This document shows positions 6,324-41,144 of a stretch of DNA of 41,144 bases, piece by piece. The stretch is taken from the IMG/VR virus record IMGVR_UViG_2579778538_000003. The stretch is one strand, 5' to 3'. The notes beneath the pieces were generated by a model. The model was not told where the DNA came from and did no database searches. It saw nothing but the letters and a program-made list of their open reading frames with translations. Source of the DNA: a virus (Duplodnaviria > Heunggongvirae > Uroviricota > Caudoviricetes). Within the stretch, counting starts at the first letter, position 1, and every line of letters begins with the position of its first letter. The position numbers and the translations under genes were made by a program.

Positions 6324-7253
6324 ATGGCAAACACTGCTGAGATATTCAATTTTCCAGTGCCGGATGCGGCACAAAAGGAGCCGCGCGTGGCAGATCTCGA
6401 TGATGGTTATACGCGCATTGCAAATGAGTTGCTGGAAGCTGTGATGCTGGCCGGATTAACACAGCACCAGCTTCTGGTCTTTCTGGCTGTCATGCGCAAA
6501 ACATATGGCTTTAATAAAAAACTGGATTGGGTTAGCAACGAGCAACTTTCCGAATTAACCGGGATATTGCCGCACAAGTGTTCTGCTGCAAAAAGTGTTC
6601 TGGTAAAGCGTGGGATTTTTATTCAGAGCGGGCGGAATACCGGCATTAATAATGTGGTCAGTGAATGGTCAACATTACCCGAATCAGGTAAGAAAAATAA
6701 AGTTTACCTGAAAGAGGTAAATTTACCTGAATCAGGTAAAAAAAGTTTACCCAAATCAGGTAAAGGCGTTTACCCGAATCAGGTAAACACAAAAGACAAA
6801 CTAACAAAAGACAATATAAAACCTTTTTCGTCCGAGAATTCTGGCGAATCCTCTGACCAACCAGAAAACGATCTTCCTGTGGTGAAACCGGATGCTGCAA
6901 TTCAGAGCGGCAGCAAGTGGGGGACAGCAGAAGACCTGACCGCCGCAGAGTGGATGTTTGACATGGTGAAGACCATCGCGCCATCAGCCAGAAAACCGAA
7001 TTTTGCAGGGTGGGCTAACGATATCCGCCTGATGCGTGAACGTGACGGACGTAACCACCGCGACATGTGCGTGCTGTTCCGCTGGGCATGCCAGGACAAC
7101 TTCTGGTCCGGTAACGTGCTAAGTCCGGCCAAACTCCGCGACAAGTGGACCCAACTCGAAATCAACCGTAACAAGCAACAGGCAGGCGTGACAGCTAGCA
7201 AACCAAAACTCGACCTGACAAACACAGACTGGATTTACGGGGTGGATCTATGA
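6324..7253 (+). CDS. O: lambda-type replication initiator O (start at ATG 6324 with GGAGG ribosome-binding site; longer ORF opens at 6234)
   Basis: N-terminus MANTAEIFNFPV...VADLDDGYTRIANELLEA...RKTYGFNK parallels lambda O; C-terminus nearly identical to lambda O; ori iterons lie inside the gene. Confidence 0.85.
   Translation: MANTAEIFNFPVPDAAQKEPRVADLDDGYTRIANELLEAVMLAGLTQHQLLVFLAVMRKTYGFNKKLDWVSNEQLSELTGILPHKCSAAKSVLVKRGIFIQSGRNTGINNVVSEWSTLPESGKKNKVYLKEVNLPESGKKSLPKSGKGVYPNQVNTKDKLTKDNIKPFSSENSGESSDQPENDLPVVKPDAAIQSGSKWGTAEDLTAAEWMFDMVKTIAPSARKPNFAGWANDIRLMRERDGRNHRDMCVLFRWACQDNFWSGNVLSPAKLRDKWTQLEINRNKQQAGVTASKPKLDLTNTDWIYGVDL
6675..6785. repeat. replication origin iterons: five 17-bp palindromic repeats TTACC(C/T)(G/A/T)AA(T/A)(C/G)AGGTAA inside O, followed by an AT-rich stretch
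   Basis: Direct reading: iterons at 6675-6691, 6704-6720, 6723-6739, 6747-6763, 6769-6785; AT-rich segment 6786-6830; same architecture as lambda ori. Confidence 0.75.
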
Positions 7254-7951
7254 AAAACATCGCCGCACAGATGATTAACTTTGACCGTGAGCAGATGCGT
7301 CGGATCGCCAACAACATGCCGGAACAGTACGACGAAAAGCCGCAGGTACAGCAGGTAGCGCAGATAATCAACGGTGTATTCAGCCAGTTACTGGCAACTT
7401 TCCCGGCGAGCCTGGCTAATCGTGACCAGAACGAACTGAACGAAATCCGCCGCCAGTGGGTTCTGGCTTTCCGGGAAAACGGGATCACCACGATGGAGCA
7501 GGTGAGCGACGGAATGCGTGTTGCCCGTCGGCAGAATAGACCATTTCTGCCATCACCCGGGCAGTTTGTTGCATGGTGCCGGGAAGAAGCATCCGTTACC
7601 GCCGGGCTGCCAAACGTCAGCGAGCTGGTTGATATGGTTTACGAGTATTGCCGGAAGCGTGGTCTGTATCCGGATGCAGAGTCTTATCCGTGGAAATCAA
7701 ACGCGCACTACTGGCTGGTTACCAACCTGTATCAGAACATGCGGGCCAATGCGTTGACTGACGCGGAATTACGGCGCAAGGCTGCCGATGAACTGGCCTG
7801 TATGACCGCGCGAATTAACCGTGGTGAGGCTATACCTGAACCAGTAAAACAACTTCCTGTCATGGGCGGTAGGCCTCTAAATCGTGCACAGGCTCTGGCG
7901 AAGATCGCAGAAATCAAAGCTAAGTTCGGGCTGAAAGGAGCGATGAAATAG
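7250..7951 (+). CDS. P: lambda replication protein P (DnaB loader), 233 aa
   Basis: Translation MKNIAAQMINFDREQMRRIANNMPEQYDEKPQVQQVAQIINGVF... essentially identical to lambda P; ATG overlaps the O stop. Confidence 0.97.
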   Translation: MKNIAAQMINFDREQMRRIANNMPEQYDEKPQVQQVAQIINGVFSQLLATFPASLANRDQNELNEIRRQWVLAFRENGITTMEQVSDGMRVARRQNRPFLPSPGQFVAWCREEASVTAGLPNVSELVDMVYEYCRKRGLYPDAESYPWKSNAHYWLVTNLYQNMRANALTDAELRRKAADELACMTARINRGEAIPEPVKQLPVMGGRPLNRAQALAKIAEIKAKFGLKGAMK

Positions 7952-8200
7952 AGCTAAAGTATTAGCTTAAAAATAAAGTATACCTAGCGAATATAATCTA
8001 GGACTAGTTGTAACGCCCGAAATGATTGATTGCGTGAGCAACAAAATTTTTCTTCCATTGTTGTGAAATCATTTAGCCATAAAGTTTATGCAGAGATTTT
8101 ATTTTATTTTTGAGTTGATTTTTTTGTAACGAGCTGTATATTTCGCGCCTCTTGTCATACCAGTTATTTTTTTCATTATATTCATAACGTTGATTGAACT

Positions 8201-17663: not shown

Positions 17664-17957
17664 TTATTGTGAGCAATACACACGCGCTTCCAGCGGAGTA
17701 TAAATGCCTAAAGTAATAAAACCGAGCAATCCATTTACGAATGTTTGCTGGGTTTCTGTTTTAACAACATTTTCTGCACCACCACAAATTTTTGCTGCAT
17801 CGACAGTTTTCTTCTGCCCAATTCCCGAAACGAAGAAATGATGGGTGATGGTTTCCTTTGGTGTTACTGCTGTAGGTTTGTTTCCAACAGTAAACGTCTG
17901 TTGAGCACATCCTGTAATAAGCATTGCCAGAGCGGCAGAAAACAACATTTTTTTCAT
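17664..17957 (-). CDS. bor: Bor lipoprotein (serum-resistance moron), 97 aa from ATG 17957
   Basis: MKKMLFSAALAMLITGCAQQTFTV...ICGGAENVVKTETQQTFVNGLLGFITLGIYTPLEARVYCSQ matches lambda Bor. Confidence 0.95.
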   Translation of the reverse strand: MKKMLFSAALAMLITGCAQQTFTVGNKPTAVTPKETITHHFFVSGIGQKKTVDAAKICGGAENVVKTETQQTFVNGLLGFITLGIYTPLEARVYCSQ

Positions 17958-18437
17958 CTTATTATCCTGCATTGTTAAAAACGGCAGAATCCTATGTGAC
18001 AACAATTAAACGATAGTTAAATGGATTGATGAAAATTAAAACTACACAGGTGGGCTCAGACTATTGGAGGAAGTTGGGGACACTCAGAATCCTGTGGAAT
18101 GAAATAAACCGGTCTATCCGTCCATTACCCTTTTAGCTGCGCTGTATCGTCGCCGTATTCCCGCATTAACCATGACCGTAGCCCGACGGGGAATTCCTTC
18201 TGCGTGAGTGTGCGGGAATAATTAAAAACGATGCACACCGGGTTTTTACCGCGTTAATGATTCGCGGGTTTATCCCGGTGCGATGGTGGAAGAAACAGGA
18301 AGCTGTATTACAGAAAGTGCTACTACTGTATCCCGATGCGATGTATGTAATGTGAGTCAGATAATGGCACAGGATGTGGTGATGTGGCAGTCTGGAACAC
18401 AGGATATATTGTCAGAATAAGACCCGTAGGAATAAAA

Positions 18438-18764
18438 ATGAAAAGACGCCTTTTACTACTTTTTCTGTTATCTGTCCTGGCAGTGGGATGCTCGCAGCAA
18501 AAAGCTGATGAGCCCCGGCAATTAGTGACGGTGTATCCACGATATCCGGAATATGCTGCAGCAAATTATATCAAGGGGCTGGTTGAGGTTAAGTTCGATA
18601 TTGGTGCTGATGGGACTGTGACACGGATCGTTTTTCTCCGCTCAGAGCCTCATAATTTGTTTCGTGATGAAGTGGTGAAGGCCATGGCGAAATGGCGATT
18701 TGAAAAGAATCGCCCCTGTCAGGGAGTGAAGAGACAATTTATCTTTACGCCGTCACGTCCTTGA
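18438..18764 (+). CDS. small lipoprotein consisting largely of a TonB C-terminal-domain-like fold (109 aa)
   Basis: Lipoprotein signal MKRRLLLLFLLSVLAVGC; mature part VYPRYPEYAAANYIKGLVEVKFDIGADGTVTRIVFLRSEPHNLFRDEVVKAMAKWRFE resembles the E. coli TonB C-terminal domain (motif pattern recalled from memory, not computed); AGGAA ribosome-binding site. Confidence 0.6.
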   Translation: MKRRLLLLFLLSVLAVGCSQQKADEPRQLVTVYPRYPEYAAANYIKGLVEVKFDIGADGTVTRIVFLRSEPHNLFRDEVVKAMAKWRFEKNRPCQGVKRQFIFTPSRP

Positions 18765-38541: not shown

Positions 38542-40563
38542 ATGGCAGTACAGATTTCAGGTGTGCTGAAAGACGGTGCAGGAAAACCGATACAGAACTG
38601 CACCATTCAGCTCAAAGCAAAACGTAACAGCACCACAGTTGTGGTGAACACGGTGGCCTCAGAAAATCCGGATGAAGCCGGACGTTACAGCATGGATGTT
38701 GAGTATGGCCAGTACAGCGTCGCCCTGCTGGTTGAAGGTTTTCCGCCTTCACATGCCGGGACCATCACCGTGTATGAGGATTCTAAGCCGGGGACATTGA
38801 ATGATTTTCTGGGCGCTGCAACAGAAGATGATGTTTGTCCGGAGGCACTGTATCGTTTTGAAAAGATGGTGGAAGAGGCGGCACGCAACGCTGAAGCCGC
38901 CTCTCAGAGCGCAGCGGCAGCAAAGAAATCAGAAACAGCAGCGGCATCGTCCAGGAACGCGGCGAAAACATCAGAGACGAATGCAGGTAACAGCGCGAAA
39001 GCGGCAGCTTCTTCAAAAACAGCCGCACAAAACGCAGCAACAGCGGCAGAACGTTCAGAGACAAATGCCCGTGCGTCAGAAGAAGCCTCCGCAGACAGTG
39101 AAGAGGCTTCCCGCCGTAATGCAGAGTCAGCCGCTGAAAATGCCGGAGTCGCCACCACAAAAGCGCGGGAGGCCGCAGCAGACGCAACAAAGGCCGGGCA
39201 GAAAAAGGATGAGGCTCTGTCGGCAGCGACACGAGCTGAAAAGGCGGCAGACCGCGCAGAAGCCGCAGCGGAAGTGACTGCAGAGCCCTGTGCGAATATA
39301 GTGCCGCCGCTGCCTGATGTGTGGATACCGTTTAACGATTCACTGGATATGATTACGGGTTTTTCGCCATCTTATAAAAAGATAGTTATTGGTGACGATG
39401 AAATAACAATGCCAGGCGACAAGATTGTTAAGTTTAAACGTGCTTCAACAGCAACGTATATTAATAAGTCCGGCCAACTCAAGCTTGCTGAAGTTGACGA
39501 ACCGCGATTTGAGCGCGATGGCTTATTGATTGAAGGACAGAGGACAAATTATCTGAGGAACTCAAATAAACCAGACTCATGGACTGTTCATTCCGCACTG
39601 AATAAAACATTTGGCACTGATAAACAGGGGTTCAATTATGCCACGGTGACACCCACGGAAAGTATAGTGGGAACAACAGGTGGCTATACTGTGCATGGTG
39701 TGGTTGCAGCAGACAGATTCCCGCTGGCAAGTGGTGAATGTTTCACTTTTTCGTGCCGGGTTAAAGGCGCTAAAGCACGATGCAGGTTAAGAGTTTCAGT
39801 TATTATTGGTGGAACAGATACCTTCTCTGCTGACTCTTATCTTGATCTGGATACCCGGATCGCAACAGTAAGCGGTAATACATCCCTTATAACAGCCAAA
39901 GCTGAACAACAGGGCGAGTGGACCTACTATGAGGCCACTTATACAGCTAATACGGACATTGATACCGTTAACTGTGCTTTTTATATGACAAATAAAATAA
40001 GTAATGAGACATTCTATGATGACTCAACATTAACCATGACGACGCCGCAAATTGAACTGGGCAATACGGCATCGTCATTTATTGTAACTACAATGCCAAC
40101 AACACGCGCAAGTGATGTAGTTACTATCCCATCGCAGAATAACCTGTCAACACGGCCTTTTACGGTATTGTGCGAAGTAAGCAGGAACTGGAGTACACCG
40201 CCCAATGTTGCGCCAAGGATATTTGATGTTGGAGGGCACAGTATTGATGATAATTATTTATCGCTGGGGTTTGTTGCAACAGGAAAGATAAGCGCCAACG
40301 TAGGAATGGTTCAGCCACAAATTGCCTCAGATGGAGAAAGGTTCATTGTGGGTGTGAGAGCTAAATCTGATTTATCAGTAAATGCAATATGCAATGGTAA
40401 TTATACAACAAACCTTAATGGTAAAATATTTGGAGTTACAGCAACATCGTACCGGTTTGGTGGGCAGACCGCAGCAGGAACGCGTCATTTGTTTGGACAC
40501 ATCAGAAATTTCAGAGTCTGGTTTAAAGAATTAAATGACAGGCAAATCAAGGAGGCAGTATGA
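38542..40563 (+). CDS. side tail fiber protein (Stf-like N-terminus, Ala-rich shaft, distinct C-terminal lectin/LamG-like domain), 673 aa from ATG 38542
   Basis: N-terminus MAVQISGVLKDGAGKPIQNCTIQLKAKRNSTTVVVNTVASENPDEAGRYSMDVEYGQYSV... resembles lambda Stf; Ala/Ser/Glu-rich region; C-terminal ...GHIRNFRVWFKELNDRQIKEA resembles a concanavalin/LamG-type terminal motif (from memory); GGAG ribosome-binding site. Confidence 0.75.
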   Translation: MAVQISGVLKDGAGKPIQNCTIQLKAKRNSTTVVVNTVASENPDEAGRYSMDVEYGQYSVALLVEGFPPSHAGTITVYEDSKPGTLNDFLGAATEDDVCPEALYRFEKMVEEAARNAEAASQSAAAAKKSETAAASSRNAAKTSETNAGNSAKAAASSKTAAQNAATAAERSETNARASEEASADSEEASRRNAESAAENAGVATTKAREAAADATKAGQKKDEALSAATRAEKAADRAEAAAEVTAEPCANIVPPLPDVWIPFNDSLDMITGFSPSYKKIVIGDDEITMPGDKIVKFKRASTATYINKSGQLKLAEVDEPRFERDGLLIEGQRTNYLRNSNKPDSWTVHSALNKTFGTDKQGFNYATVTPTESIVGTTGGYTVHGVVAADRFPLASGECFTFSCRVKGAKARCRLRVSVIIGGTDTFSADSYLDLDTRIATVSGNTSLITAKAEQQGEWTYYEATYTANTDIDTVNCAFYMTNKISNETFYDDSTLTMTTPQIELGNTASSFIVTTMPTTRASDVVTIPSQNNLSTRPFTVLCEVSRNWSTPPNVAPRIFDVGGHSIDDNYLSLGFVATGKISANVGMVQPQIASDGERFIVGVRAKSDLSVNAICNGNYTTNLNGKIFGVTATSYRFGGQTAAGTRHLFGHIRNFRVWFKELNDRQIKEAV

Positions 40564-40838
40564 AAGATTTAACTTTGAAATTTCCTGGTAACAGAGAGTT
40601 TAAATCCTTCCTGTCATCTCTTGACTGGGAGGAGGATGAAGACCTCCAGAATAAACTGTTAGTCGATGAAATTGGTTTCACCTACACAGAAACAGGGGTA
40701 ACAGAAGAGGGAGAACCTGTCTGTGTCCGGAATGACGGTTATTTTGTCAACATTCGCATTCTTGATGACTTGTTTGATGTTTCTGTATTCTCTGATTATG
40801 TCGTGGAGCTGGAAACACCGCTTCGGGAATGGAGCTGA
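40560..40838 (+). CDS. hypothetical acidic small protein (92 aa), translationally coupled to the tail fiber gene
   Basis: ATG overlaps the stf stop (ATGA); AAGGAGG ribosome-binding site; Asp/Glu-rich; occupies the position where a tail fiber assembly gene is expected but is too short and not recognisably Tfa. Confidence 0.5.
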   Translation: MKDLTLKFPGNREFKSFLSSLDWEEDEDLQNKLLVDEIGFTYTETGVTEEGEPVCVRNDGYFVNIRILDDLFDVSVFSDYVVELETPLREWS

Positions 40839-40850
40839 AAGGAGGAAATA

Positions 40851-41144
40851 ATGGATATAAGCCCCTTACTTCATGCACTTTGTGCTGTGGCTGCGCAGAT
40901 ACTGGTTGGTCTTTTTACCGGAAACTGGGCTTACGGAGCGATAGCCGGTTGTACGTTCTTCATTGCGCGTGAACATACCCAGGCAGAATATCGCTGGATT
41001 GAAATGTTCGGGCATGGCAAGCGAATGAATATGCCGTGGTGGGGCGGTTTTGATCCGCGAGCTTGGGATGTGGCAAGCCTGATGGATTTTGCTGTGCCGG
41101 TGGTGGCGTGTCTGCTGGTCTGGCTGTTGGTTAATCGTGGGTGA
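40851..41144 (+). CDS. hypothetical small membrane protein (97 aa)
   Basis: AAGGAGGAAATAATG ribosome-binding site and start; hydrophobic segments LLHALCAVAAQILVGLFTG and FAVPVVACLLVWLLV; stop at the window end. Confidence 0.5.
   Translation: MDISPLLHALCAVAAQILVGLFTGNWAYGAIAGCTFFIAREHTQAEYRWIEMFGHGKRMNMPWWGGFDPRAWDVASLMDFAVPVVACLLVWLLVNRG

Follow-up and report, generated by a model that had tools for sequence, protein, structure and literature searches.

A phage 21-type prophage gene for a predicted lipoprotein with a free-standing TonB C-terminal domain: a possible decoy for TonB boxes

What can a temperate phage gain from a gene for the C-terminal domain of the host protein TonB, separated from the parts by which TonB is anchored and energised? 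The question is raised by a small gene of the IMG/VR virus record IMGVR_UViG_2579778538_000003 (Duplodnaviria; Heunggongvirae; Uroviricota; Caudoviricetes), and the whole stretch of 41,144 nucleotides, one strand of which was analysed here, is called the window. The window is a phage 21-type prophage, and the identical region is found at the icd integration site of many Escherichia coli chromosomes. The gene lies after the lysis genes and encodes a predicted lipoprotein with a free-standing TonB C-terminal (TonB_C) domain. It is conserved under purifying selection and transcribed in the lysogen, and its product may act as a decoy which competes with TonB for the TonB boxes of outer-membrane transporters.

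An earlier note, made from the letters alone, had placed the reading frame at positions 18438-18764. These coordinates are right, but the product read from the sequence (ATG start, 108 codons, TGA stop) has 108 residues and not 109 (Table 1). The protein starts with MKRRLLLLFLLSVLAVGC, which matches the lipoprotein signal pattern, and continues with SQQKADE. Its n-region has three basic residues and is followed by a hydrophobic core and the sequence LAVG before Cys18, with Ser19 at position +2. A lipobox of the form [LVI][ASTVI][GAS]C together with a residue other than Asp at +2 was used as the criterion for a lipoprotein signal, and the protein has both. Cys18 is predicted to be the lipidated first residue of the mature protein, and Ser19 in place of Asp predicts its sorting to the outer membrane; lipidation and an outer-membrane location are therefore put forward here as sequence-based predictions. 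The LAVGC signal and the Ser at +2 are kept across the family in the sense that no variant, even at 30% identity, lacks the lipobox Cys, and that position +2 is occupied by S, A, T or V and never by Asp. The window protein has a second Cys (C94), which relatives do not share as a rule. Seven polar residues separate Cys18 from the domain, and the link from the membrane to the globule comes to about 12 residues when the extended stretch up to residue ~30 is counted with this tether.

The assignment of the domain as TonB_C is certain. The Pfam TonB_C hidden Markov model (PF03544), which the earlier note had named as a check of its claim, matched the protein with 49.2 bits and E=7e-13 (gathering cutoff 24.6), far beyond chance, and TIGR01352 tonB_Cterm matched it with 47.4 bits (cutoff 27.1). 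Against the PDB chains 1U07, 1XX3, 2GSK_B and 2GRX_C, phmmer gave E values from 1.4e-14 to 6e-14. Residues 24-103 (Asp24 to Phe103) correspond to residues 151-230 of E. coli TonB without a gap over 80 residues, at 38-40% identity. All the TonB motifs which had been listed from the sequence are present, namely P34-x-Y36-P37 (containing the YP motif, Y36-P37), V51-K-F-D54, D58-G-x-V61 and F75..E78-V79..A82-M83..W86-R87-x-E89. Moreover, all five aromatic positions of TonB are kept, as F53, F75, W86, F88 and F103 stand for F180, F202, W213, Y215 and F230. The strand β3 comprises residues 94-103; the protein stops five residues later in a proline-containing tail, and the last four residues of TonB (236-239) have no counterpart.

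The remainder of TonB is absent, in agreement with what had been proposed. The models of full-length TonB equivalogs matched only with their C-terminal ~85 positions, at 45-69 bits against cutoffs of 265-448. Apart from TonB_C the Pfam scan of the protein gave nothing, and hence neither an N-terminal nor a proline-rich family of TonB; true TonBs recovered in that search, by contrast, have both PF03544 and PF16031, the family of the proline-rich spacer. The proline-rich spacer is missing, only the seven polar residues standing before the domain, and the uncleaved N-terminal transmembrane anchor of TonB is replaced by the 18-residue lipoprotein signal. As neither anchor nor spacer is available for coupling to ExbB/ExbD, the protein cannot transduce energy.

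The three dimensional structure predicted with AlphaFold leads to the same assignment. A shallow alignment gave a predicted local distance difference test (pLDDT) score of 64, though the model already matched TonB structures. After the alignment had been deepened with diverse relatives, including enterobacterial TonBs from a profile search, the mean pLDDT was 85.7, with block means of 96-98 over residues 31-100. Foldseek comparison of this model with the PDB gave, for 1u07_A, E=4e-8, a template modelling (TM) score of 0.90 and a root-mean-square deviation (rmsd) of 1.1 Å over 84 columns; the values were TM 0.92 and rmsd 1.0 Å for the BtuB-bound TonB (2gsk_B) and TM 0.92 and rmsd 1.2 Å for the FhuA-bound TonB (2grx_C). 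The structural comparison with the TonB C-terminal domain suggested in the earlier note has thus ended in its favour, at TM 0.90-0.92 and an rmsd of about 1 Å. The next matches were FusB (7zc8, TM 0.81) and the TonB domains of Salmonella and Pseudomonas, followed at a much lower level by HasB and domain III of TolA. The viral structure library BFVD returned no significant match for the model, and the predicted TonB_C fold is not among the catalogued viral protein structures.

The protein is 100% identical to CPT_21_73 of phage 21 (UMO75484.1), annotated "TonB C-terminal domain protein", and identical copies are found in phages ev017, Perceval, PhiR47_2, PhiR57_1 and PhiR63_2 under labels which include "TonB family protein" and "TonB fragment". 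The RefSeq entry is WP_000830178.1, "TonB family protein". The free-standing TonB_C lipoprotein gene of these lysogens is therefore already recorded at the level of annotation. An allele of 72% identity is present in Stx1a phages, JLK-2012 and Lys8385Vzw, and tblastn found the protein in 15 phage records altogether. Among 5426 complete E. coli genomes the gene is carried by 1617, with up to four copies per genome; 1225 of the carriers have it at >=95% identity and 392 have a diverged allele, and the match is full length in 1612 of the 1617. UTI89, ATCC 25922, O157:H7 and O111 are among the carriers.

Beyond these genomes, an exhaustive search of 1.84 billion representatives gave 2795 TonB_C relatives, many of the best being ~110 residues long, with an N-terminal lipobox or a plain signal peptide and 30-47% identity, and the family at this level of identity covers several genera. 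Two relatives used as probes of IMG/VR brought up 47 viral contigs, and in the many with a recognisable phage 21-type holin, endolysin, Rz or terminase the gene stands between the lysis genes and the terminase on the same strand. The same slot is occupied on phage backbones which are unrelated to one another: in JLK-2012 (with an HK97-type terminase and HNH, and no bor), in Klebsiella phage ST13-OXA48phi12.4 and in a Rahnella prophage which has other holins, an endolysin of the GH19 type and a GpA terminase. The ratio of nonsynonymous to synonymous substitutions (dN/dS, Nei-Gojobori) is 0.12 between the two E. coli alleles (dN 0.18, dS 1.5) and 0.09-0.32 among the Klebsiella-type alleles, from which it follows that the gene is not a decaying "TonB fragment". 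The origin is best explained by capture: in an ancestral phage the globular C-terminal domain of TonB from an enterobacterium came to be joined to a lipoprotein signal. On the chromosome of Erwinia rhapontici, a 113-residue TonB_C protein (positions 6001-6342 of L055/L056) with an ordinary signal peptide and no lipobox signal is encoded among metabolic genes, with no phage genes near; hence free-standing periplasmic TonB_C proteins are not exclusively phage-borne.

Published RNA sequencing has captured the transcription of the identical gene, LF82_160, in prophage Perceval of strain LF82, where Misson et al. (PMC9928086) list it as a moron; the moron character supposed for the window gene is thereby supported. 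The transcript was 8-fold above the prophage background in lysogeny broth, and log2 fragments per kilobase per million (fpkm) were 5.0-6.6 in all conditions of the supplementary table, while the upstream Rz gene on the same strand had 2.3-3.7 and the downstream terminase small subunit gene 2.3-4.3 (PMC9928086). Since the gene is transcribed above flanking genes which remain at background in the lysogen, it should have a constitutive promoter of moderate strength of its own between bor and the start codon. In the same data bor rises from a log2 fpkm of ~4 to 11 in Dulbecco's modified Eagle's medium (DMEM) and macrophages, an induction of ~100-fold, whereas LF82_160 is not differentially expressed (log2 fold change 0.26; PMC9928086). 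These two neighbouring lipoprotein morons are thus regulated independently. The gene is probably dispensable for the phage cycle, judging from its absence in lambda and in many phages which share the J and sit region of phage 21.

The interval between bor and the gene holds a conserved non-coding element (Table 1), ~95% identical to phage JLK-2012 where the adjacent genes are 72.5% identical. The element occurs in 3080 of the 5426 E. coli genomes and is annotated in none of them, has an 83% match in lambda beside bor, and contains a perfect 9-bp inverted repeat ATTCCCGCA...TGCGGGAAT. It could be the promoter or regulatory region of the moron, or a mosaic-boundary sequence. On the plus strand upstream of the gene no sigma-70 consensus was found at >=9/12, only weak candidates of 8/12, and no Fur box, the best match being 11/19. 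Nor was a structured RNA detected there, as there was no Rfam match and the fold z-scores of about -1 on both strands were no better than those of shuffled sequences.

How could such a protein serve a lysogen? The C-terminal domain of TonB binds the TonB box of a transporter by strand addition to its β3 edge, as in the 2GSK and 2GRX complexes. In free TonB the C-terminal residues lie along the edge which the TonB box later occupies; if this placement is correct, a decoy which is truncated five residues after β3 would have its edge permanently open. With its tether of about 12 residues, the domain would be kept close to the periplasmic openings of TonB-dependent transporters, where the free β3 edge could pair with the TonB-box strand of a transporter or of several, or with that of a colicin on its way in. 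TonB would then have a competitor, and TonB-dependent phages (T1 and phi80 types), colicins and microcins would enter less readily. A decoy competing with TonB for TonB boxes is the best available hypothesis for the gene, and we give it a probability of about 0.4; the box binding and the exclusion phenotype which it implies may be expected from the domain, its predicted location and the precedents below. The bolder form of the hypothesis, a natural "anti-TonB" in which an outer-membrane-tethered mimic of TonB would protect lysogens broadly against phages, colicins and microcins which depend on TonB, is put forward more hesitantly.

Several precedents are consistent with the decoy. According to the account given in PMC9841981, TonB-dependent iron import and the transport by FhuA and FecA are inhibited, through competition, when the periplasmic domain of TonB is produced in excess (Howard et al. 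2001), and both infection by phi80 and killing by colicins are diminished by a TonB-box pentapeptide (Tuckman and Osburne 1992). The dissociation constant (KD) of soluble TonB fragments for FhuA is 20-200 nM (PMC11658791). Like the phage protein, the engineered fragments of Howard et al. place a TonB_C domain in the periplasm without the energy-coupling parts; they are, on the other hand, soluble, over-produced and of authentic sequence, whereas the phage gene is natural, diverged and modestly expressed, and its product is predicted to be lipid-anchored. A further case is Llp of phage T5, a lipoprotein which is located in the inner leaflet of the outer membrane and acts on a TonB-dependent transporter from the periplasm. 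With the C-terminal domain of E. coli TonB itself (residues ~150-239) the window protein shares the fold, the YP motif, the five aromatics and the box-pairing β3 strand, but it is without the transmembrane helix and the proline-rich spacer and has its own predicted lipid anchor signal.

The same comparison, extended to 18 members of the phage family and 16 enterobacterial TonB domains, provides some of the points which weigh against a decoy. The core, the YP motif and the positions of F202, W213 and F230 are strictly kept in the phage family, and those of F180 and Y215 remain aromatic. Residues which are invariant in TonB are nevertheless replaced: R166, which we take to be a FhuA contact, by Tyr in 89% of the family, L170 by Asn, A196 by Ser and M201 by Leu. 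The conservation of N190, N200, R204, K207 and N227 is lost, and the position of Q160, implicated in the recognition of the TonB box, is variable. These replacements could reflect an altered partner, although as a pattern in the sequences they fit equally well a decoy released from the other contacts of TonB and a module with a new or narrower partner. Further, carriers such as UTI89 and ATCC 25922 presumably have functional TonB-dependent uptake, which makes a strong global block unlikely. PADLOC gave no match at E<=0.1 for the protein or its small neighbours, and full-text searches of the literature brought up no functional study of the protein and no report of binding or phenotype, only annotation and the RNA sequencing listing. 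The level of the transcript is also modest (PMC9928086). Any effect of the decoy would probably be partial, selective or conditional.

The replaced residues lend themselves to the view that the TonB_C scaffold has been neofunctionalised and binds something other than a TonB box, such as peptidoglycan, an envelope protein or a host factor, for the fitness or virulence of the lysogen in the manner of bor/iss. In FusB and HasB, paralogues of TonB which serve partners of their own, the surface of the TonB_C domain has diverged accordingly, although these proteins are full-length energy transducers anchored in the inner membrane, unlike the phage protein. The family-specific changes R166Y, L170N, A196S and M201L and the loss of R204, K207 and N227 point this way, as do the adjacency to bor/iss in the window and in LF82 and, for the listed carriers, an enrichment of lineages of the extraintestinal and adherent-invasive kinds (UTI89, LF82, and isolates of clinical origin which we take to be ST131). 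The secreted protein of the non-prophage Erwinia chromosome means that the fold is used outside phage conflict. Yet the parts which frame a TonB box, namely the YP motif, the aromatics and the exposed β3 edge, are kept; the linkage to bor is not obligatory, since three carriers of the gene (JLK-2012, the Klebsiella phage and the Rahnella prophage) have no bor; and no search pointed to another ligand. We consider such a change of function unlikely, with some real weight. A mask of a single receptor, which would bind the periplasmic face of one TonB-dependent transporter in the style of T5 Llp or Cor, act allosterically and exclude one group of phages with TonB function left intact, is improbable. 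Its selectivity would reconcile a prevalence of 30% with the iron uptake which we presume to be normal in carriers, and the altered surface residues could encode specificity. Llp and the Cor proteins of phi80, N15 and HK022 are likewise small phage lipoproteins of the inner leaflet of the outer membrane which act from the periplasm on a TonB-dependent transporter, FhuA, and so exclude phages; the footprints of TonB and Llp overlap. They are, however, specific to FhuA and unrelated in sequence and fold, the PDB matches of our model being TonB, HasB and TolA only and BFVD giving none of significance, and the PHROG search gave no match to an Llp/Cor-type family. Moreover, cor and llp typically lie beside the receptor-binding gene, whereas the place of the TonB_C gene is between lysis genes and cos, and J is ~16 kb further downstream. 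The C-terminal ~150 residues of J in this phage are lambda-like (~50% identity), and J is not followed by a cor gene. Self-exclusion at the phage's own receptor was considered and rejected on the same two observations, as nothing indicates that this receptor is TonB-dependent.

Two other readings carry very little weight. The best PHROG match, phrog_1267 (E=5e-43), is placed in the lysis category under the label 'Rz-like spanin', the gene is on the strand of the late operon and in every case comes shortly after the lysis cassette, and Q-modified late transcription would be expected to read it too; it might on these grounds be a late outer-membrane lipoprotein which disrupts the envelope as a lysis accessory. 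This is very improbable, because a complete Rz with its embedded Rz1 is present and related phages have separate spanin candidates, the globular TonB_C domain is not a short proline-rich o-spanin, and the gene is transcribed in the lysogen while Rz stays at background. The label of phrog_1267 is most likely a positional, or lipobox-driven, mis-annotation which will propagate in annotation pipelines. It is just as hard to credit that the gene is what is left, without function, of a host tonB once captured, as would be suggested by labels in the EDL933-derived annotation and in Perceval ("TonB fragment", "partial tonB-like") and by truncated and frameshifted copies among the cluster representatives. 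The low dN/dS values and the almost uniformly full-length genome copies speak against decay, and so do the acquisition and retention of a lipoprotein signal, which TonB does not have, the spread of the family over several genera, and the gene's own ribosome-binding site and independent transcription.

The position of the gene in the bor moron region has been confirmed, after the lysis genes and bor and before Nu1 and the terminase. The prophage has the order int, xis, recombination genes, repressor, O/P, a large cargo insert, the nin region, Q, holin, endolysin, Rz and bor/iss, followed by the TonB_C gene, nohD/Nu1, terminase, and head and tail genes to J. With lambda Bor/Iss and other morons between lysis genes and cos, the gene shares its genomic niche, expression in the lysogen and an outer-membrane lipoprotein as its (here predicted) product; Bor/Iss is of an unrelated family, lies on the opposite strand and is strongly induced in DMEM and macrophages, whereas the TonB_C gene is constitutive.

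Table 1. Coordinates in the window of the TonB_C lipoprotein gene, its parts and its neighbours
Feature	Position	Strand	Remarks
Rz	17171-17632		complete gene
Rz1	17391-17573		complete, embedded in Rz
bor homologue	17664-17960	minus	RefSeq label iss (increased serum survival)
Conserved non-coding element	18135-18290	plus	between bor and the TonB_C gene; unannotated; candidate promoter/regulatory region, uncertain
Shine-Dalgarno site AGGA	18428-18431	plus	6 nucleotides 5' of the ATG; likewise annotated in the phage 21 record
TonB_C lipoprotein gene	18438-18764	plus	108 residues; TGA stop included in the coordinates
Lipoprotein signal peptide (predicted), residues 1-18	18438-18491	plus	MKRR, hydrophobic core, lipobox L14-A-V-G-C18
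Polar tether, residues 19-25 (SQQKADE)	18492-18512	plus	placed from low pLDDT to about residue 24 and high from about 25, and from the TonB alignment
TonB_C domain, residues 26-105	18513-18752	plus	helix-strand-strand-helix-strand topology
Nu1	19717		followed by terminase A

With lambda the window shares its R-Rz-bor block at 92% identity and a stretch of ~110 bp just past bor at 83%, beyond which there is no similarity until the cos end. A counterpart of the gene in the right arm of lambda, which had been thought possible, does not exist: lambda is not among the 15 phage records with a tblastn match, a direct search of lambda 45000-48502 gave no TonB_C homologue, and the corresponding interval holds lambdap78 and lambdap79 instead.

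The cargo inserted between replication gene P and the nin region consists of a gene for a 1421-residue inverse autotransporter (8201-12466, plus strand; intimin/invasin-like, with IAT_beta and repeated Big_1/Invasin_D3 domains) and a convergent gene for an alpha/beta hydrolase (12503-13546, minus strand; BD-FAE/esterase). Over the window as a whole, no RNA family of Rfam reached the gathering threshold. In phage 21 the late promoter and the holin gene are separated by genes for tRNA-Asn and tRNA-Thr; the corresponding stretch of the window is ~16085-16393, between Q and holin, and from the empty scan this prophage is without these tRNA genes despite a nearly identical lysis-to-cos region. After the side tail fibre gene there are two plus-strand open reading frames of 92 and 97 residues (40560-40838 and 40851-41144) which belong to PHROGs 1361 and 1443, both without a functional label; the second frame, for which the phage 21 annotation gives a membrane protein having a signal sequence, lies roughly where other lambdoid phages have host-range or exclusion genes of the lom or cor type.

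Just past the right end of the window lies sitABCD, an Fe/Mn ATP-binding cassette transporter (positions 2816-6265 of L053, an identical prophage; 6968-10417 of phage 21, L002), which in phage 21, Perceval and the prophages identical to the window is found downstream of the side tail fibre genes. As a TonB-independent importer it was considered as compensation for the blocking of TonB, and this was rejected as a rule, since the cargoes are independent across phages. sitA is present in all seven phage records with the identical TonB_C allele and in none of the eight other TonB_C records, and 20 phage records have sitA without TonB_C. The link is one of hitch-hiking within a lineage, with no obligate pairing.

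This study describes a widespread and selected lipoprotein gene, expressed in the lysogen, with a predicted outer-membrane product and a place beside the serum-resistance gene bor/iss; even if the decoy hypothesis fails, it remains a candidate for virulence or fitness. If the hypothesis is true, a gene found in nearly a third of E. coli genomes, with carriers in uropathogenic, adherent-invasive and Shiga-toxin-producing lineages, would modulate every TonB-dependent process, and the infection by T1- and phi80-type and many therapeutic phages, the killing by colicins and microcins and the uptake of siderophores, vitamin B12 and siderophore-antibiotics would be affected. After Llp/Cor, this would be a second and mechanistically different way in which a phage acts on TonB-dependent transporters from the periplasm, and a natural counterpart of the inhibitors of TonB interaction which are pursued as antibiotics. 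In its bolder form as an anti-TonB, it would mean superinfection exclusion by mimicry of the host energy transducer rather than by the masking of a single receptor, in the prophages of Klebsiella, Rahnella and related genera as well.

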